Positions 1,880 through 32,401 of a stretch of DNA of 37,130 nucleotides are shown one piece after another. Every line of letters starts with the position of its first letter. Positions within the stretch are counted from its first letter, which is position 1. The notes below the pieces were generated by a model, which saw nothing but the letters and a program-made list of their open reading frames with translations, had not been told where the DNA came from and ran no database searches. Source of the stretch: Candidatus Sericytochromatia bacterium (GTDB lineage Bacteria; Cyanobacteriota; Sericytochromatia; UBA7694); assembly GCA_964229355.1 (NCBI GenBank), contig CAXRDE010000005.1, positions 1 through 37,130 on the forward strand, given 5' to 3'. A program made the translations under genes and the position numbers.

Positions 1880-2200
1880 CCAACTATGCAGATCGCCGCA
1901 GCATCGCTACGCTCGCAAGTCAGCTTCGGCGTTCCGCATACATCGTGTTAAAGGCCAACTAAATGCTCATGTTTGAGGACGAAAGGGCTGCAGCAATCAC
2001 ACAACCAGGAAAGGCGCAAGATCTTGACATTTTCCACGTTGAACACTCCCCGACCTAATCAATGCTGTCCTTATTCGTACGGCTCACAAGTTCGCCTACG
2101 ACTAAGGCAAGGTCGGAGATTCTAAGACTACGCATGTGGCAACCCACTACGTTAACGCCTTAAGGGTCTGACCGGCCCCACGTTTTCGTATATTTTCCGC
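1880..2200 (-). ncRNA. predicted TnpB-associated omega-RNA (reRNA) region overlapping the tnpB 3' end / right end
   Basis: Established architecture of IS200/IS605 places the omegaRNA across the 3' end of tnpB and the right end. The 290-nt non-coding stretch 3' of tnpB (minus strand) contains CCGACC...GGTCGG and other short stem candidates. Boundaries are a guess. Confidence 0.3.
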
Positions 2201-3313
2201 TGCATTCAGGTCACGGTCAAGCTCCAGACCACAGTGTGTGCAGCGATGCACCCTGACAGCCAACGATTTTGGAACCTTTTCACCACAACCTGAACAGTTT
2301 TGGCTGGTGCCCTTTGGGTCTACGCGATACACCTTCCTACCGGCTCCTTCCGCCTTGTAGGTCAGCATGTCGAAAAAGGTGCTCCAACCAGCATCAGCAA
2401 TAGATTTGCTGAGATGCTTGTTCTTGACCATATTGGTCACTTGCAAGTCTTCGATGTAGATATTCTGGTAACGATTCACATAGTGAAATGAGGCTTTGTG
2501 CAAGAAATCCTGCCGCAGGTTGAAGATTTTGCGGTGGGTTTTCTTCAGTTGTTTGACTGCTTTTTTTCTGCGATTTGAACCCTTCTTACGGCGCGACACT
2601 TGGCGCTGTTGCTTTCTGAGATTGTCCTGTAGCTTACGGTAATACTTGGGGTTCTCAATGGGTGTGGTATTCGGGTCTGTGTCCACACAAAAATGCTTCA
2701 GCCCTACGTCAATGCCCACAGAATCTTGCACGGGCCTATCGTATTCCTTGGCAGGCACCTGGTCACAGGTCAAGCAGACCCACCAGCCCCCCAAACCATC
2801 ACGGGTGACGGTAACCGTCTTAATGCGGCCTTCGATGGGACGAGACAAATGCAGCTTAAAAATGCCCACGTTCGTGATTTTCAGATGGCGTCCGTCCAGC
2901 TTCCAGCCTGCCGTTTTGAGGGTAAACGAATCGTAACGGTGAATGGAGCGAAAACGCGGAAAGCCTGCTTTGCCTTGCTTCTTACGCAAACGAGAAAAGA
3001 AACTCTGAAAGGCCCGCTCAACACGCTCAACCACTTCTTGCAGTACCTGAGAGCCCACCTGAGCAAACTCAGGAAAAGCCTTTTTGAACCCAGGTAGTTC
3101 ATTCTTTTGAGCAATCCCATTGAGGGTTATACCACAGCGCTTGTAAGCCACAATACGCTGTTCCAGGCAGATATTGTAGAGCTGTTGGCACAAAGACAGC
3201 CAGTTTTCGGCTTTGGCAGCCGTGGTTTTGCTGACCACTGCTTTGAACTTGTATGTTCTGATGCGTGATGTCTCTTTCTTGGCTTTCGTTTTGCTCATCG
3301 TGTGCCGTGCCAT
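2147..3313 (-). CDS. tnpB: IS605-family TnpB (OrfB) RNA-guided endonuclease
   Basis: 388-aa ORF with a RuvC-I GIDVG motif. It also has a C-terminal zinc finger CSGCG...CTHCG followed by the RuvC-III DRDLNAAENI motif typical of TnpB/Cas12 ancestors. An alternative start at MSKTK (3298) directly abuts the tnpA stop. Confidence 0.85.
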   Translation of the reverse strand: MARHTMSKTKAKKETSRIRTYKFKAVVSKTTAAKAENWLSLCQQLYNICLEQRIVAYKRCGITLNGIAQKNELPGFKKAFPEFAQVGSQVLQEVVERVERAFQSFFSRLRKKQGKAGFPRFRSIHRYDSFTLKTAGWKLDGRHLKITNVGIFKLHLSRPIEGRIKTVTVTRDGLGGWWVCLTCDQVPAKEYDRPVQDSVGIDVGLKHFCVDTDPNTTPIENPKYYRKLQDNLRKQQRQVSRRKKGSNRRKKAVKQLKKTHRKIFNLRQDFLHKASFHYVNRYQNIYIEDLQVTNMVKNKHLSKSIADAGWSTFFDMLTYKAEGAGRKVYRVDPKGTSQNCSGCGEKVPKSLAVRVHRCTHCGLELDRDLNAAENIRKRGAGQTLKALT

Positions 3314-3708
3314 TCTATGTATCTGCGAACGGTTTCTGAACTGACGTTACCAGCGGTGCTGACAAAGTAAGAGTTCGTCCAGAGTGAGCGATTTTTGCCT
3401 CTGGGATAGACGGTTTTGAGTCTGGGAAACTCTGCCCGAAGCATACGCGAAGTGTAGCCTTTGAGTAAAAAGGCAATGTCACGAGGCGCAAACTTGGGCA
3501 GAGCGTTAACAAAGAGGTGCACATGGTCTGATTGTATCTCAAGCGCAATGATTTCTAAACTCAGGTCTTTGCATTTTTCATGCAAAAAGGCATCCTGTCT
3601 TTCAGCAATTTGCCCAACGAGGCTCTTTTTCCTGCGTTTGGGAATCCACACGAAGTGGAAGTTAATCAGGCTGACAGAGTGATTCAGGCGCTTGTAATCT
3701 TGACCCAT
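3295..3708 (-). CDS. tnpA: IS200-like TnpA, Y1 (HuH) single-strand transposase
   Basis: 137 aa; the HuH motif SDHVHLFV and the C-terminal catalytic Tyr context ETVRRYIEWH match IS200/IS605 TnpA. Confidence 0.85.
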   Translation of the reverse strand: MGQDYKRLNHSVSLINFHFVWIPKRRKKSLVGQIAERQDAFLHEKCKDLSLEIIALEIQSDHVHLFVNALPKFAPRDIAFLLKGYTSRMLRAEFPRLKTVYPRGKNRSLWTNSYFVSTAGNVSSETVRRYIEWHGTR

Positions 3709-3715
3709 ATGCTTA

Positions 3716-3907
3716 GCTCCAGCGTTCCATTTCTTTAACCAGTCTCAGGGCCATCTGAAAGCCTTCACGGAAGCCTTTTTCTTCGGCCACAAACAAAGGG
3801 CCTGTGGCTGCATCGTTCAGATTGCGAATGATTTGGCTGGTAGTTTCCACTTGTTCTGCTGGCAGCAAAGATTGCAGGTGGGCACATATACGGTCAATTT
3901 CCTTGCT
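3716..3907 (-). pseudogene. start-less 64-codon ORF fragment ending 8 nt before tnpA (possible gene remnant or left-end passenger)
   Basis: Open frame SKEIDRICAHLQSLLPAEQ...GFQMALRLVKEMERWS* bounded upstream by an in-frame TAG and containing no ATG/GTG/TTG start before its last 13 codons. It is not in the ORF track for that reason. Confidence 0.25.
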
Positions 3908-4184
3908 CTAGCCTGTCAAACTTTAGCAACAAATTAACTAGAGAATCTCTTCGCTACAACGAAGCCCAAGAAATAGCCGAAGCTTTGGGTTATGAGATTG
4001 TTTGGAAGAAGAAAGAAAGTTAAAGGCTACTTTGCAAATGATGCCCGTCTGTAAAGGATTGACTACTGACGACCAAGCTTCGCTTGGTGGAGCTTATATC
4101 CCTAACCTGAAGGACGGGGTTTTACGCTCCGTGCTATAATAAACCTCAGTGCTTATCTTTTTATTCAGTTATTCAGGGGATTTT

Positions 4185-26688: not shown

Positions 26689-27543
26689 TTAGCGGGTAAA
26701 GCTTTGGAGTTCGAGCACAGTGGTGGTGTCCACTGAAACACCATTTGACTGGGTTTTGCCCTTCACTTCTTCTTTCACCATGCCAATATTATCGACCATC
26801 CAGACTTTAATGTCCTGGTCTAAAGCACCGGCTGCACCGTCTAAAACCACTTTGGTTTTGCCCAGCACCACACCGGCGTTATAGGTGCCTGCGGGCACGC
26901 TCACGCTTTCGGTACTGTCCGCACCGGTCCAATCTAAGGTACCGCTACCAGCTGCCTGCATGCCTTCCACATACAAGGCGCTCACAGATTTCATCTGAAC
27001 GGTTTTTTCAGTGGGAGGTACTGCCGGAGCTCCCGCCACGGTGCTGTTGACCTCGGTACGGAAGGTTACCATATCACCCTGTACGTCAATGACTTCCATG
27101 CTGAAAGTGCCTAAATCCATAGAGCTGCCGCCGGAACCGCTGCCGCCGAGTCCCGGAATGCTGATGCCACTGGGAAGGTTGGGTACGGCAATGGCACCGA
27201 TTTCGTTCTTCATGCCATAGACCCATTTCATGCCTTTGCTATAAGACATTTCGTACTGATCAAATAAATTGGCACCGGTGACTGTTAAGACACCATTGGC
27301 CGCTGCGCTGGCACCGGTATTGGCACCTACAGAAACACCGGCATTAACACTGGTGCTCGCCGAAGCGCTGGCATTGGGTGTGGCAGAAGAGGTCGGGTCA
27401 GGACTGGCCGAAGGATCAGGGCTGGCAGAAGCGGCAGGCGAAGGACTTGCTGAGGGATTTAAACTGGCATTGAGATTGGCCTCACAGGCACTCAAACCGA
27501 CGAGAGCTGCACTGGCAAGACCTAAAAGAAAACGTTTTTGCAT
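26689..27543 (-). CDS. lipoprotein with Ala/Ser/Pro-rich linker (hypothetical)
   Basis: Lipobox LSAC and linker PSASPSPAASASPDPSASPDPTSSATPNASASAS. The start is set at ATG 27543 because a perfect SD AAGGAGA lies 6 nt upstream. Confidence 0.6.
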   Translation of the reverse strand: MQKRFLLGLASAALVGLSACEANLNASLNPSASPSPAASASPDPSASPDPTSSATPNASASASTSVNAGVSVGANTGASAAANGVLTVTGANLFDQYEMSYSKGMKWVYGMKNEIGAIAVPNLPSGISIPGLGGSGSGGSSMDLGTFSMEVIDVQGDMVTFRTEVNSTVAGAPAVPPTEKTVQMKSVSALYVEGMQAAGSGTLDWTGADSTESVSVPAGTYNAGVVLGKTKVVLDGAAGALDQDIKVWMVDNIGMVKEEVKGKTQSNGVSVDTTTVLELQSFTR

Positions 27544-27768
27544 AAGAAATCTCCTTAAACCGAATATTTGATACATTTGTTAAAGACGTAGAAAATTCAA
27601 AAAAGTTCTGTGTGCCCAGGGCGCGCAGATGGTGCTCAGTATAGCGTAAAGTTGCAAGGGCTGCCTCAGTGCTTGAAAAGATAAAATACAGAAAGAATTA
27701 CTTCTGCGCACATTATCCTCTAAATATAATATGAGGTAAGTTTTACCAGAGGAAAAAGGTCCAGGATC

Positions 27769-28128
27769 ATGAACAAAATTAACCTACACCACAAATTAAC
27801 CCTGTTTTCCGAGCATTGGTCTCCCAGGGTCATTGCCGAAATGAATGACTACCAGTTTAAACTGGTCAAAATCAAAGGGGAATTTACCTGGCATGCCCAT
27901 GAGGACACAGACGAAGTCTTTTTGGTACTGGAAGGTGAAATGGGCATTGTCTTTAGAGACCAAACTGTTCTACTGTCTCAAGGTGAAATGCTCGTGGTTC
28001 CCAGGGGCGTCGAGCATAAACCCTTTGCTGAGCAAGAGTGTAAAGTCATGCTGATTGAGCCCAAAGGGGTTGTTAATACCGGGGAATCTGGTGGTCCGCT
28101 AACGGCGGAAAATGATGTGTGGATCTAA
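27769..28128 (+). CDS. cupin-domain protein
   Basis: The cupin motifs are present: G(x)5HxH-like [18 protein letters not shown] and [13 protein letters not shown]+C is lower than the flanking core genes. Confidence 0.65.
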
Positions 28129-28236
28129 AAGGCAGTGATGAGACCCAAATACCTGATGTTATTTTCGAACGCACTCCTCAAGTGTGGTGACCTGTAGCTT
28201 GCTATCGCTGGTTTACACTGAGTTTAAAACACTCTT

Positions 28237-28254
28237 CCTGAGATTGTACCTGTA
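28237..28254. repeat. 18-bp direct repeat copy 1 (CCTGAGATTGTACCTGTA), att-like core
   Basis: Exact match to 29142-29159. The sequence 28255-28310 on the minus strand encodes YDCERVWVHTPQQMVQVQSQEECFKLSVNQR*, a diverged copy of the radical-SAM gene C-terminus. Confidence 0.7.
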
Positions 28255-28425
28255 CCATCTGCTGGGGCGTATGAACCCAAACTCGCTCACAATCATACTG
28301 GAACAAATATGAGCGTATTATCGCTATCATCGTCATGGAGTCCGCATGGAACTAAAATCACAGTATAATTAAGACCTTTTTAAACCATAGAAAAATAATT
28401 CTGATAAGGCATTCACGTAAAAAAC

Positions 28426-28884
28426 ATGGAGTTTCAACACTATACAAAGCAGTATAAAGATCAGTGTTTAAAAGTTTTTGAAAGTAATATAGGTCAATAT
28501 TTTGATGCCTCAGAGCGAGAATTGTATACAGAATATCTGAATGCTTTAAGTCTCGATATAAACGCTAGCTATTATGTCTACTTGTTACATGGCGAAGTTA
28601 TTGCCTGTGGTGGCTATTTGTTGAATGTAAACGTTTGTGCTTTAGCGTGGGGAATGGTTCATCGGGATTTTCATAATAAGGGTATTGGTACAAAGCTTAT
28701 CGATTTTCGTTTAAGCCAGCTGTCGAAAAATAAAGATGTAAAAACTGTACTCATCGAGACTTCTCAACATACAAAAGGCTTTTACACACAACACGGTTTT
28801 GTTCAAACCCAGGTGATTAAAGACGGCTTTGGAAAAAATATTGATCGTATTTTGATGGAAAAGGTCATCGCACATCATCCATAA
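28426..28884 (+). CDS. GNAT-family N-acetyltransferase
   Basis: GNAT motif A HRDFHNKGIGTKLI. The gene is markedly AT-rich: a hand count of its first 100 nt gives about 31 G+C. Confidence 0.75.
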   Translation: MEFQHYTKQYKDQCLKVFESNIGQYFDASERELYTEYLNALSLDINASYYVYLLHGEVIACGGYLLNVNVCALAWGMVHRDFHNKGIGTKLIDFRLSQLSKNKDVKTVLIETSQHTKGFYTQHGFVQTQVIKDGFGKNIDRILMEKVIAHHP

Positions 28885-29106
28885 AAGATGCTTCAACTAC
28901 CGCCGACCAGGAGAATTCAAAGTCGAAATACTCACTTGCTTACGACAAACATCTTTTAATCGGGAGCCAATGCCATGGTCTGCACAATACCTCTGCTTTC
29001 TTCCTCAAACGATTAATTAATTGTAAACACAAAACGTCATTCATTAAAACCATAAAGATCCCTCACAAGTACAGGAAGCAGGAAGGATAAGTCCTAAAGC
29101 ATTTTC

Positions 29107-31425
29107 TCACCCCGAGTGTAGATTCAAGCGCACAGCCTGCCCCTGAGATTGTACCTGTAGCGTTTGCTGAGAAACATGGGTCAAGACCCGTTCACAGCGC
29201 AACACCAGATCCGGTGAAGTAAAGAAGGGAATCCGCTCAAAGGACTGATCTACCTCGTGAATACTCAACGCCCGGCGGGCCATGCGCTGGGCTTTGCTGA
29301 GCTGTTGCTGCTGGGCATAAAGCTCAGCCAGGTGCAAGTAAGCCTCAGTCAGGTAAATGTCTTTGTGAATGGCACTCTGCAGAGCCTGAATCGCCTGAGG
29401 ATAAGCCTGTTGGGTACGCCACCATAGCCCGGCCACCAGATCTCCCTCAGCCAGATTGTGCCCCTGTTGCCGTGCCACATTGAGCCAGTGTTGTGCTTTG
29501 TCTAGCTGTTGGCGTTCAAGGGCAAAGTACGCAGCGCGAACAGCTAGACGGTCCACAAAGGGGAAGCGTTTAAGCACGCTCTCGTTAATAAATTCAGCAG
29601 CGCGAGCATTGCCCTGCTGCTTCAGACTGCGCACCTGTTCTAAGGTGTTTTCGAACACCGTCAGGCCATTGTGGGCCAACAGCTTGTCTTTACCAAAGCG
29701 AGAGAGGTACAGAAAAAAGGCAATGCGCGGCAATTGCTGCCAAAAAGTAGCGCGGTAGCTTAACCACACTTCATCGCTAAAACGCTCCTGAAACAGATGG
29801 GCCTGGGCATTATCCATGCCGCTTTCAAGGGTATAGCGAATATCGCTGGCCCAGTCTAACTTAAGATCGTCGGCATTGGCGGTTACCCCGTGGGCTTCGC
29901 GGTTGCGGTAAATGGGGGTGTTTTTTTTGAGAATGAAGGGTGAAGTGGCCAGAGAGTTAATAAACGCCTGATTTTTGCGAATAAACTGCACCGTCTCGGT
30001 AGCGGTTTCAAGGGTCTCGCCCGGGAAACCAAAGATCAAAAAGGCAAAGGTAAAAATGCCCGCCTCGTGCAGATTTTTGTACACGGTTTCGGTAATGGCA
30101 TTGTCGGTGCCTTTGACCATTTTTTGCGCCAGTTCGGCATTGGCGGACTCTAAGCCGGTCAGCACGAACAAACAGCCCGCCCGCCGCCAGAGATCTGTGG
30201 TTTCACGGTCAAACCCTTTTTGCAGTCTGGCCATGGTGTACCAGTGCACGTCCAACTCACGCTCAAGCAGGGCGTTCGACAATTGGCGTCCATAATTGGG
30301 CGACATGGTTTCATCACTAAACTGAAAGTGACGGACCCCGTATTTTTGCTGCAACAGTGCCATGTCATCCGCAATTTTGTAGGGCTTGCGAGAGCGAAAA
30401 CCCGCAAACTGCATAAAATGATCACAAAAAGTACAGTCTTTCCAATAGCAATCCCGAGACCCCAAAATGGGCAAAACAAGCTCTGCAGACCAATAATTAT
30501 CGAGATCTAAGCCATCAAAATCAGGGGCCTCAATGTCATTCATAGACAGGGCTGTGCCAATGCCGTTGACCTGTAGGCGACCATCGGGCCGATTGTAAAT
30601 GAGTGAGGGCACTTCTTCCAGCGGCAAATCGCCGTTAAGGGACTCAATCAGCTTTAACAGCGGCACCTCTCCTTCCCCTTTGACCGCACTGTGAATCAAA
30701 GTTTGAAAAGCGGGGTGGTGATCTACCTTGAGGCCATCGGCAATTTTTGAGAAATAAGCGCCCCCCACGGTAATGTGAGTGTCGGGCAGGTGCTCACGAA
30801 TTAGACGGGCCAGGGTAAAGGTGGGAATCATTTGATACTCTCGAGCGATGGAAAAGCCCACCAGATCGGGAGGATCTTTTTTGAGTTCAGGCAAAACTTT
30901 TTGCGTGTAAAAGTCTAAAAACGGATTGCTGATCTGGTTCTGACTGGCGCGAATAACCTCTGCAGAGTCGGCATAGCCTTCTTCCATAAAAAAGTGGTCC
31001 AGGGTCATGCGCGATCCCGGATACAAGGCATTAAAACAAGCAAACACCTTATCCAGGTCTTGCTTGGCCTGCAAAAGGGCTTCGTAATCGTAAAAGGCTT
31101 CGGTTTTAAAGACCCGTTTGATATGATCTAGATCGGGCAGATCTTGCAAAAGCTGTTGTAATTCCAGGTCTTGCTCTGGCGTAAGCCAGGCTTTACGGGC
31201 CTGAAATTGGGTCTCTAGATAGGCTTTATCGAAGGCCTGATCGTAAAACTGTAGATTGAGGTCCCACTGGTCAATCGCGTGTCCGTGTTGCCTGACATAA
31301 CTGCATAAACTGGGCAACGATAAATAGGGCATGCTCGGTTCCCAGTAGGGGCAAAAAAGCAAAAGGGTTTTGATAGACATCAAGGCAACAGTCACTTTCT
31401 CAGGATAATGCCTTGAACATAGCAT
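29107..31425 (-). CDS. B12-binding-domain radical SAM protein with C-terminal TPR repeats
   Basis: N-terminal B12-binding-like region (IKTLLLFCPYWEP...YLSLPSLCSYVRQHGH). The Fe-S cluster motif CYWKDCTFC at residues 326-334 was verified on the DNA at 30424-30450. C-terminal TPR-like helices are present (AAYFALERQQLDKAQHWLNVARQQG...EAYLHLAELYAQQQQLSKAQ). Confidence 0.8.
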   Translation of the reverse strand: MLCSRHYPEKVTVALMSIKTLLLFCPYWEPSMPYLSLPSLCSYVRQHGHAIDQWDLNLQFYDQAFDKAYLETQFQARKAWLTPEQDLELQQLLQDLPDLDHIKRVFKTEAFYDYEALLQAKQDLDKVFACFNALYPGSRMTLDHFFMEEGYADSAEVIRASQNQISNPFLDFYTQKVLPELKKDPPDLVGFSIAREYQMIPTFTLARLIREHLPDTHITVGGAYFSKIADGLKVDHHPAFQTLIHSAVKGEGEVPLLKLIESLNGDLPLEEVPSLIYNRPDGRLQVNGIGTALSMNDIEAPDFDGLDLDNYWSAELVLPILGSRDCYWKDCTFCDHFMQFAGFRSRKPYKIADDMALLQQKYGVRHFQFSDETMSPNYGRQLSNALLERELDVHWYTMARLQKGFDRETTDLWRRAGCLFVLTGLESANAELAQKMVKGTDNAITETVYKNLHEAGIFTFAFLIFGFPGETLETATETVQFIRKNQAFINSLATSPFILKKNTPIYRNREAHGVTANADDLKLDWASDIRYTLESGMDNAQAHLFQERFSDEVWLSYRATFWQQLPRIAFFLYLSRFGKDKLLAHNGLTVFENTLEQVRSLKQQGNARAAEFINESVLKRFPFVDRLAVRAAYFALERQQLDKAQHWLNVARQQGHNLAEGDLVAGLWWRTQQAYPQAIQALQSAIHKDIYLTEAYLHLAELYAQQQQLSKAQRMARRALSIHEVDQSFERIPFFTSPDLVLRCERVLTHVSQQTLQVQSQGQAVRLNLHSG
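29142..29159. repeat. 18-bp direct repeat copy 2 (CCTGAGATTGTACCTGTA) inside the 3' end of the radical-SAM gene
   Basis: Exact 18/18 match to 28237-28254. It encodes LQVQSQ of the radical-SAM C-terminus on the minus strand. Confidence 0.7.
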
Positions 31426-31481
31426 AAGATCAGTTATCTTAGAAGATACAGATGCGTTTAAAAAGGGAGGATCTCAACCGG

Positions 31482-31898
31482 ATGATGTCTACAGAAGAGG
31501 CCCAGGCCTTCGCGGCAGAGTGGTTACCCGCCTGGACGGGCAATCAACCGGAAGCCCTGGCCGCGTATTATGCCGATGACTGTTTTTACATGGACGCAGG
31601 CATACCCCAAGGAGCCCGGGGTAAAGGCGAATTGCTTAACTACTTGCGCAAATTACTGGCACAAAATCCCCACTGGGTATGGACCCAGCTCGAAGCCATT
31701 CCCATGGAAGACGGTTTTTTAAACAAATGGTTGGCAAAAATTCCCGTGGGAGACAAGGTGATTGAGTGTGTGGGCGTCTGCCTGGTGCAGTTTAACCCCC
31801 AGGGTAAAATTCGGCGCAATGAGGTGTATTTTGATCGCACAGAGCTGGTAGCGGCGGTCTACGCCCTTCAAAAAAGCCGTCAGGCCAAAGGCCTTTAA
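31482..31898 (+). CDS. SnoaL-like / NTF2-fold protein
   Basis: About 139 aa with the WLPAWTG...ALAAYYADDCFYMD pattern typical of the SnoaL_2 / NTF2-like superfamily. ATG 31482 has SD AAGGGAGGA 10 nt upstream, which lies inside the longer 31452 ORF. Confidence 0.5.
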   Translation: MMSTEEAQAFAAEWLPAWTGNQPEALAAYYADDCFYMDAGIPQGARGKGELLNYLRKLLAQNPHWVWTQLEAIPMEDGFLNKWLAKIPVGDKVIECVGVCLVQFNPQGKIRRNEVYFDRTELVAAVYALQKSRQAKGL

Positions 31899-31899
31899 G

Positions 31900-32307
31900 A
31901 TGCGTGAATTAACCGGAGGTTGTTGTTGTGGACGGGTCCAATTTGAAGTTAAAGATGCCTTTGCAACATTCTTTTTTTGTCACTGTGAACAATGCCGAAA
32001 ATTAACGGGCTCAGCCCATGCCGCCAATCTCTTTACTGCGCCTGAGAATATCACCTGGCTGCACGGTCAGGAACATACCCGACGCTATGATCATCCCACG
32101 CGCTTCTTTTCAAAGGTTTTTTGCCTGGACTGTGGTTCTGCCCTTCCCTATCTTTCTCAACGGGGTAACACATTGATTGTGCCTGCAGGCAGCCTGAATG
32201 AAGAGCCAACACAACCCGTGAACGCCAGAATCTTTTGCAAGGAGCAAACCCAATGGCACAAACAGGGCCTGGAAGCCCCTGCTTTTCAGGATGATCCATC
32301 AATATAA
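31900..32307 (+). CDS. GFA-family (glutathione-dependent formaldehyde-activating / CENP-V-like) zinc protein
   Basis: The Cys patterns are GGCCCGRV, CHCEQC and CLDCGS, at the spacing seen in the GFA family. Confidence 0.7.
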   Translation: MRELTGGCCCGRVQFEVKDAFATFFFCHCEQCRKLTGSAHAANLFTAPENITWLHGQEHTRRYDHPTRFFSKVFCLDCGSALPYLSQRGNTLIVPAGSLNEEPTQPVNARIFCKEQTQWHKQGLEAPAFQDDPSI

Positions 32308-32401
32308 CTCCACCACAGCCCTGTAAAGTTCAATGTGCTAAAACAGGCCACGCCCCATGTTAAGATAAGCTAAGATCAAGCAAAAAGGCGGACAAGGGCG
32401 C

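Follow-up and report, generated by a model that had tools for sequence, protein, structure and literature searches.

Does an exact direct repeat on either side of a small AT-rich gene mark the place where an integrase inserted an element into the 3' end of a neighbouring gene? The question is raised by a locus of Candidatus Sericytochromatia bacterium (GenBank assembly GCA_964229355.1, contig CAXRDE010000005.1, positions 1 to 37,130 of the forward strand; this whole stretch of 37,130 nucleotides is called the window). A gene for a GNAT N-acetyltransferase (28426..28884, plus strand, 152 aa) lies here between two copies of the 18-mer CCTGAGATTGTACCTGTA, located at 28237-28254 and 29142-29159, 905 bp apart. 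The distal copy belongs to a radical SAM (rSAM) gene of the B12-binding type with a C-terminal TPR region, which is encoded on the minus strand as a 772-aa open reading frame (ORF; 29107..31425). The proximal copy belongs to an orphan fragment of such a gene (28237..28291, minus strand), the two being separated by the GNAT gene. An earlier interpretation made from this DNA alone (the sequence-only reading) held that an integrase had inserted an element into the rSAM 3' end, that the element had supplied a new gene terminus, and that the original terminus had been displaced to the far junction. We conclude, with a probability of roughly 0.6, that the 18-bp repeat is an ordinary recombination scar in a swapped GNAT module, and not an integrase att site.

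The rSAM 3' end in relatives that lack the GNAT gene

If an element had entered the rSAM gene at the 18-mer, then a relative without the GNAT gene is expected to lack the segment 28255-29141, and its rSAM gene is expected to end in the displaced terminus, EECFKLSVNQR followed by a stop codon. Close relatives were found via the GNAT protein and the protein of the adjacent cupin gene, and via the cluster of rSAM proteins formed at 90% identity. The contigs L055, L056, L057, L058, L059, L060 and L053/L054 share synteny with the window either on a single flank of the locus or on both flanks, and the modules that they carry differ. Samples containing these lineages are SRR28144605, SRR27540935, SRR27540960, SRR30982339, SRR23031614, SRR24079428, SRR14005094 and ERZ27257198.

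The segment 28255-29141 is not what the relatives lack. In L056 and L058 the missing segment is 28129-~29020, the proximal repeat included, and its place is taken by about 610 bp of DUF3465 coding sequence. Homology to the window ends exactly at the cupin stop codon (28128) in L055, L056, L057 and L058. An empty site with a single core at the repeat positions was not seen in six lineages; the boundaries lie at 28128/28129 and ~29003-29021.

Nor does the rSAM terminus have the distribution expected of a sequence that came with the element. The GNAT-less L056, L058 and L060 already have the window-type tail G[QL][AG]VRLNL[HS]SG (GLGVRLNLHSG in L058, ...VRLNLHSG in L056 and GQGVRLNLSSG in L060, each followed by a stop codon), and the protein collection has four rSAM alleles (a 90% cluster that includes P0251 and P0253), each of which ends in ...QVQSQG[QL][AG]VRLNL[HS]SG and a stop. 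The tail EECFKLSVNQR occurs in none of L056, L058, L060, P0251 and P0253. The segment 29083..29141 (minus strand), which holds the native rSAM 3' untranslated region (UTR; 29083-29106) and the last 11 codons with the stop (GQAVRLNLHSG, 29107-29141), is the same in the GNAT-less L056 and L058, and in GNAT-less lineages the same UTR and tail adjoin DUF3465. Since tail and UTR are shared with lineages that lack the GNAT gene, the rSAM terminus is native and nothing was inserted at the distal core. Divergence leads to the same view: the window and L058 are 85% identical to the left of the distal core and 84% identical to its right, and this equality on both sides indicates one contiguous native segment. 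The comparison with relatives thus shows an rSAM 3' end (18-mer, last 11 codons and 3' UTR) that is native and uninterrupted. More distant rSAM orthologues (L002-L005, 61-66% identical) lack synteny with the locus and their C-termini are unalignable, so they are unusable as empty sites.

A GNAT module in the place of a DUF3465 gene

The module is bounded by the cupin stop codon and by a point inside DUF3465, and relatives have DUF3465 sequence in its place; it therefore represents a replacement and not an insertion. Alignments of the relatives show that the ancestral order was cupin, DUF3465, rSAM, with the DUF3465 gene as the rSAM neighbour, and that an 892-bp module (28129-~29020) replaced the first ~610 bp of DUF3465 in the lineage of the window. 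In the right part of the module (28885..29020), the junction with DUF3465-derived DNA was placed at about 29003-29021 by the L058 alignment and by blastn against L056 and L058. What follows is a 3' remnant of DUF3465 (29021..29082, plus strand), which corresponds to approximately residues 203-220 of the L056 protein; its last codons were hit by a ~32-bp deletion. The remnant matches L056 3522-3569 and L058 1110-1157 at 83-85% in blastn, and E=3e-4 was obtained in tblastn. Its ~60 bp also correct the statement in the sequence-only reading that only a GNAT gene lies between the repeats. DUF3465 is full-length in L056 and L060, while the L058 copy has a TGG-to-TAG nonsense change relative to L056 (L058 1120-1125). 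Because of this change, DUF3465 is seen to be decaying also in a lineage that never received the GNAT gene.

The left anchor of the exchanged module is the cupin gene (27769..28128, plus strand; Pfam Cupin_2, E=2e-12), whose last ~21-26 bp are conserved in five related lineages. It is followed by 73 bp, termed X (28129..28201), between the cupin stop and the orphan fragment with its tail; X is within the exchanged module and is identical in the window and L053/L054. The GNAT gene, the cargo of the module, is preceded by an AT-rich leader (28292..28425, plus strand, 33% G+C) with a sigma-70-like promoter match at 28330-28358. Its protein has hits to Acetyltransf_7 (3.5e-10), Acetyltransf_1 (2.9e-9) and Acetyltransf_10 (2e-8), all above the Pfam gathering scores. 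A 98% identical copy is present in L053/L054, and the next best homologue, from Photobacterium, is 53% identical. The enzyme is presumably expressed from its own promoter and would acetylate a substrate.

Base composition agrees in part with what the sequence-only reading had described. The G+C content is indeed about one-third in the GNAT gene (35.5%, with 32% at third codon positions) and intermediate in the cupin gene (45.8%), while "well over half" for the neighbouring genes is slightly overstated (rSAM, 50.5%; a DUF3108-like gene, 52.4%; whole window, 51.7%). Of the proposed integrase-mediated insertion, what stands is a small, low-GC, foreign GNAT module that is present in some lineages and absent in others; the geometry of insertion into the rSAM 3' end does not.

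The cupin protein is 75-79% identical to Pseudoalteromonas and Alteromonas proteins. Both small genes, cupin and GNAT, resemble imports from marine Gammaproteobacteria.

Exchange of the module between diverged lineages

The GNAT module has moved, as had been proposed: two lineages with flanking genes that are 14-17% apart carry versions of it that are ~99% identical. When the window was compared with L053/L054, the block 28108-29151 contained 9 substitutions and 3 indels in 1044 bp (0.9% substitutions). The 66 bp to its left, at the cupin 3' end (28042-28107), contained 9 differences (14%; Fisher p=2e-7), and the 149 bp to its right (29152-29300) contained 25 (17%; Fisher p=8e-17). Such sharp boundaries would fit an exchange by homologous recombination, a process that has been described for flexible genomic islands, with sharp changes in single-nucleotide polymorphism (SNP) density at the boundaries (PMC4033161).

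A four-way alignment located the crossovers. L053 has the sequence of the window as far as 29151 and that of L058 from 29152 onward, and L058 differs from both the window and L053 at 29136-29137 and further left. This pattern identifies L053 as an L058-like background that was given a window-type module by a double crossover. The right crossover falls in an identity patch of ~13 nt, GCCCCTGAGATTG (29138-29151), which overlaps the distal 18-mer; the left crossover falls within the conserved cupin end (last ~20 bp). The later passage of the module between lineages would thus have been a double-crossover homologous recombination that used the cupin end and the QVQSQ-coding patch. The L053 contig begins at 28127 and the L054 contig runs to 29151; both ends fit branches of the assembly graph there, which is only suggestive.

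What the 18-mer and the orphan fragment are

The 18-mer is the best-conserved stretch of a longer direct repeat. A repeat search aligns 28237-28291 with 29142-29196 over 55 nt, ungapped and in register (offset 905), at 73% identity. The distal unit (29142..29196, minus strand), within the functional rSAM gene, consists of the 18-mer, which encodes QVQSQ, and a variable 13-codon stretch. The proximal unit is the orphan fragment itself (psi, repeat family D1), which consists of the 18-mer and 37 nt and encodes CERVWVHTPQQMVQVQSQ. The sequence to the left of the distal junction, ending at 29141, is ...GCACAGCCTGCC, and the sequence starting at 28237 is CCTGAGATTGTACCTGTACCATCTG.

What the sequence-only reading had noticed directly at the two repeats was confirmed. 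The exact 18-bp repeat occurs twice in the whole window, even when up to three mismatches are allowed, and two matches were obtained in 0 of 100 shuffles. An identity of ~57% had been estimated by hand for the ~50 nt after each copy; the measured value to the right of the cores is 24/44 (55%), with an empirical p = 2.7e-5 relative to all 44-mers of the window. To the left of the cores (28193-28236 in the proximal copy), 18 of 44 nt are identical in register (p about 0.015). The minus-strand peptides at both repeats are homologous and in frame, and in the window their stops are in register (ORFs 28202-28336 and 29107-31425). The signal is carried by the codons C-E-R-V...Q-V-Q-S-Q (BLOSUM +61, p<1e-4). 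For the 11 codons after the core, EECFKLSVNQR vs GQAVRLNLHSG, the similarity is weak (9/35 nt, BLOSUM +6, shuffle p = 0.01). In the sense of the gene, the 55-nt repeat starts on the left with the Cys codon, and no similarity was found upstream of this codon (p = 0.31). The 44-aa (44-codon) orphan ORF at 28202-28336 has no Pfam match.

The fragment was compared with the rSAM alleles over the 54 nt that encode C...QVQSQ. Identity is 72% with the window allele and 76% with the L053/L058 allele, a value also given by blastn, and 80% between the two alleles. The fragment departs from them at those codons that vary among the alleles, CERV[LW][TAFV][HQ][VT][STP]QQ[TRM][LV]QVQSQ. The core matches at 17/18 positions in the L053/L058 gene allele (CCTGAGATTGCACCTGTA in L058) and at 14/18 in L060, and all changes are synonymous. 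Since the core accumulates synonymous changes among alleles, no constraint acts on the 18-mer of the gene at the DNA level. Synonymous divergence between the fragment and the L053/L058 allele is uniform, with one of six sites changed in the flank and one of six in the core. The perfect 18-mer would therefore largely be the coding sequence of an invariant QVQSQ motif flanked by variable codons, with some clustering left unexplained, and it is probably not the core site of a recombinase.

A recent local origin of the fragment is hard to reconcile with its divergence. Its distance from the rSAM gene of the window amounts to 43% over the 37 nt that adjoin the core and to ~74% over the tail, while GNAT-less lineages differ from the window by only ~13-16%. 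As the divergence of the fragment exceeds that of the lineages, the fragment is not a recent copy of the window's own rSAM gene.

A proposed history of the locus

We propose that the orphan fragment represents the last ~18-30 codons of another, divergent rSAM copy, which would once have been convergent to the cupin gene. X may be the old 3' flank of this lost copy; it does not significantly resemble the sequence to the left of the distal core, nor L055, L056 or L060. The segment A (28202..28236, minus strand), which encodes the 11 codons EECFKLSVNQR and the stop past the proximal core and has weak homology to the rSAM tail, is possibly the strongly diverged tail of the lost copy. Its stop codon is lost in L053/L054 through a 4-bp deletion (28202-28205). 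The arrival of AT-rich GNAT DNA would then have truncated the old copy at the Cys codon that starts the homologous stretch; the left end of the foreign DNA abuts this codon in the fragment. Subsequently, a functional rSAM allele together with part of its DUF3465 neighbour would have replaced the body of the truncated copy. One other relation between the two ends was considered and rejected, namely a long tandem duplication in which X and A are homologous to the DUF3465-UTR-tail region: local alignments were no better than those of shuffled sequences.

Several points weigh against the proposed history. The comparison rests on six related lineages, represented mostly by short contigs, and none of the six has a cupin gene directly convergent to an rSAM gene ending in ...EECFKLSVNQR and a stop; the donor of the AT-rich DNA and the intermediates were not found either. 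The history needs at least two events, one of them with an illegitimate junction. Between the fragment and the window allele, synonymous changes are unevenly placed (4/7 in the flank vs 0/6 in the core, a borderline p=0.049), and a run of at least 18 identities in a 55-nt alignment with 15 mismatches has p=0.012 under random placement. Finally, the strong homology of the orphan fragment ends in the 18 nt where the L053 crossover lies too, a coincidence that a site-specific process would also explain. The recombination of diverged alleles, resolving in the sole identity patch, would explain this shared position as well.

Site-specific integration as an alternative

The best surviving alternative, which we nevertheless consider unlikely, is an event of the type known from e14 and icd. 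According to this explanation, a 905-bp circle (core-B-GNAT-...-C) integrated at the 18-bp rSAM core by a site-specific or a short-homology single crossover. The rSAM gene would originally have ended in EECFKLSVNQR and a stop (...QVQSQEECFKLSVNQR) beside the cupin gene, and the element would have given the present terminus, its attP arm having been captured from a genome with DUF3465 next to an rSAM gene of this type. The recombinase would have acted in trans or been lost, and homologous recombination would have spread the arrangement to the L053 lineage. The limitation of perfect identity to 18 bp between far more diverged arms (run test p=0.012) speaks for such an event, as do the weak but non-random similarity of the tails with a stop in register in the window, a geometry like that of icd, e14 and icdC (PMC13626634), and the breakpoint of inter-lineage recombination that maps in the distal core.

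The relatives argue against it. Every GNAT-less lineage and every known allele has the tail that the element should have supplied, with the same UTR and with DUF3465 adjoining, and the boundaries of presence and absence (28128/28129 and ~29003-29021) are not at the cores. The 108 bp to the left of the proximal core should be host DNA, yet they differ from L053/L054 only by the 28202-28205 deletion, while 14% of positions differ in the adjacent cupin gene. L058 is equally diverged to the left and to the right of the distal core, no integrase gene is present, and the core is identical at both junctions in the window (18/18) but reaches only 17/18 in L053. The event would be possible only if a recipient of the order cupin, X, rSAM ending in EECFKLSVNQR exists unsampled and the arrangements of all sampled lineages are secondary. 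It is a good deal less probable still that the 18-mer is a true site for a recombinase encoded elsewhere in the genome and acting in trans, with the GNAT gene as an integrase-less cassette of ~0.9 kb that is directed to the 3' end of a protein-coding gene and carries a spare gene terminus, and with the empty site hidden by secondary rearrangements.

Searches for mobility genes and for further copies of the core point in the same direction. The sequence-only reading had listed no integrase, which agrees with Pfam scans of the window ORFs and with the gene lists of L001 and L055, and the window contains no recombinase genes other than an IS200/IS605 pair of TnpA and TnpB (2147-3708, 24 kb away). 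A search for the 18-mer covered about 600 Gb of genomes together with metagenome and viral contigs, a collection that does not include the source genome itself, and no related copy of the core was found there. The exact matches numbered 9 in genomes, 30 in metagenomes and 8 in viral contigs (47), their flanks being unrelated in every case (33-50% identity, as expected by chance when the 18 matched bases are counted), and the possibility of a widespread element was rejected on this basis. None of the 47 matches was a phage, plasmid or other replicon on which attP arms flank the 18-mer. The module has no plasmid match, and the GNAT protein has no match in viral contigs.

Other explanations of the fragment

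There is a slim chance that the fragment has been kept for a role as nucleic acid, either as an antisense sequence (the cupin 3' UTR against rSAM mRNA) or as a silent gene-conversion donor for the C-terminal segment of rSAM. The complementarity is 18/18, a G-U pair would be tolerated at the single L053 difference, and no terminator is predicted between the cupin gene and the fragment. In codons 16-29, the fragment matches one of the window and L053 alleles at 10/11 differing sites; however, this is near the expectation for an outgroup copy. Neither copy showed structure above that of shuffled controls on either strand (z = +0.96 and -0.03), and no Rfam match was found. Fragment-less lineages retain the rSAM gene, and it is not evident why a cytoplasmic enzyme should need variation of the cassette type. 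The variation of the segment does not depend on the fragment, since L058 has the L053 allele without having the fragment; the fragment was rejected as a gene-conversion source on the same grounds. Least probable of all is a local duplication. Here the insertion of the GNAT DNA would have left behind a copied piece of the rSAM gene of the window, by target duplication or as a templated patch at an illegitimate junction, and this piece would have decayed since. The direct orientation of the fragment, its shortness and its proximity to the source agree with this. But the event would be younger than the ~13-16% lineage divergence, and yet the fragment is 43% different from the gene next to the core and ~74% different in the tail. 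It also resembles the L053/L058 allele more than the allele of the window, and the sequence to its left is not the rSAM 3' UTR.

Comparison with known systems

The e14 cryptic prophage in icd of E. coli K-12, with its icdC pseudogene (Hill et al. 1989, as described in PMC13626634), is like the present locus in that the 3' end of a gene occurs twice in direct orientation, as a functional and an orphan C-terminal copy, with foreign DNA in between. Unlike here, e14 encodes its own integrase. The e14-free gene ends in the displaced fragment, whereas GNAT-less relatives keep the present terminus. The boundaries of polymorphism here are off the repeats, and the two copies, the 18-mer excepted, have diverged much further than icd has from icdC.

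The locus also has features in common with the flexible genomic islands described by Lopez-Perez, Martin-Cuadrado and Rodriguez-Valera (2014, PMC4033161). Both have a fixed position between conserved genes with a gene content that varies by lineage, and both have near-identical modules in divergent flanks, an abrupt change of SNP density and no mobility genes of their own. In contrast to those islands, which are multi-gene and serve surface structures, the modules here are single-gene and measure 0.6-0.9 kb, the crossovers lie in patches of ~13-26 nt, and the module holds a fragment of a neighbouring gene.

Integron cassettes and clusters of attC sites lacking integron-integrases (CALINs) share other features with the locus: small, promoter-poor single genes in the same orientation (GNAT, cupin and small ORFs) that vary among strains, and the closest cupin and GNAT homologues in Vibrionaceae and Alteromonadales. 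What is lacking here is the recombination apparatus of such systems. The 37-kb window contains no IntI integrase, no Rfam match to attC or another structured RNA was obtained at E<=1 in 27400-29400, and the module ends have neither GTTRRRY/RYYYAAC boxes nor an attC-like imperfect palindrome. Terminal inverted repeats are absent, only short and weak inverted repeats being present, and the junctions are directly at stop codons.

Homology-facilitated illegitimate recombination combines one homologous anchor with one illegitimate junction. The origin that we propose for the module is alike, as it needs one homologous crossover and one homology-free junction. The latter would be the junction of the rSAM Cys codon with AT-rich DNA, or that of foreign DNA with DUF3465; neither a donor nor an intermediate has been observed.

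The locus opens no new mechanism, and represents ordinary module turnover with a pseudogene scar. It carries a caution: a short perfect repeat, a low-GC gene and a duplicated gene end together mimic an att-flanked islet, and it is the relatives that show the scar. It also provides a finely resolved view of how single genes turn over at a chromosomal hot spot of an uncultured lineage, with at least six arrangements within 4 kb; one module exchange between lineages about 15% apart was resolved in an identity patch of ~13 nt.

Gene content of the islet in related lineages

The locus is part of a chromosomal islet (28129-32309) that is hypervariable and lies between the cupin gene and a molybdopterin oxidoreductase gene, and in which single-gene modules differ by lineage; this whole stretch is variable relative to L055. 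Written in window orientation, the window has the order cupin, X-psi, GNAT, DUF3465 remnant, rSAM, SnoaL and GFA, and L053/L054 have cupin, X-psi, GNAT, remnant, rSAM and Rrf2. L056 carries a 142-aa ORF, cupin, DUF3465 and the rSAM UTR and tail, up to the end of the contig. L058 has cupin, DUF3465 (with the nonsense mutation), UTR and rSAM. L060, which is without cupin, has a methyltransferase-like gene, DUF3465, an AT-rich 159-aa ORF, rSAM, SnoaL and GFA. In L055, L057 and L059, cupin (preceded by a 152-aa ORF in L055 and L059) is followed by a 101-aa ORF, in L055 then by Rrf2 and flavohaemoglobin genes, and there is no rSAM gene. No duplications were found to flank the modules of the other lineages; the orphan fragment is thus not part of a general insertion mechanism.

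The AT-rich module of L060 (3321-3800 in its own coordinates) is a single gene, its 159-aa ORF having no Pfam match and overlapping the rSAM stop codon. It sits between DUF3465 and rSAM without a flanking duplication, from which it follows that this intergenic spot takes up foreign genes repeatedly. On the syntenic 130-kb contig L055 (10361-12409), the 101-aa ORF, Rrf2 and flavohaemoglobin genes replace the orphan fragment, GNAT, rSAM, SnoaL and GFA. In L053, Rrf2 is upstream of rSAM, at the place of SnoaL and GFA in the window. A second indel hot spot lies just upstream of the cupin gene: the window (27672-27752) and L057 have an 81-bp spacer there, while L055 (9440-9982), L056 (1952-2529) and L059 have the 142/152-aa ORF, with no Pfam match on record.

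The rSAM gene itself belongs to the variable region. Its protein matches Pfam Radical_SAM and TPR_19 and, weakly, B12-binding; in databases it begins at an internal Met, giving 741 aa (P0001, 100% identical), and the sole named homologue, 47% identical, is from a Candidatus Sericytochromatia metagenome-assembled genome. The 3' (TPR) part of the gene (29160-29830) has two allele classes, window and L060 vs L053 and L058. It is 76-89% identical in 100-nt windows, and the catalytic part is 93-97% identical. The two classes suggest recombination within the gene or a relaxed constraint on the TPR tail.

The IS200/IS605 element of the window is on the minus strand, with a TnpB gene (OrfB_IS605 and a Cas12f1-like TNB domain, 2147-3313) overlapping a Y1 TnpA gene (3295-3708). 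Its ends (1850-2200 and 3650-4150) are not significantly similar to 27500-29300, and mobilisation of the locus by this element, as a palindrome-associated transposable element (PATE), was rejected.

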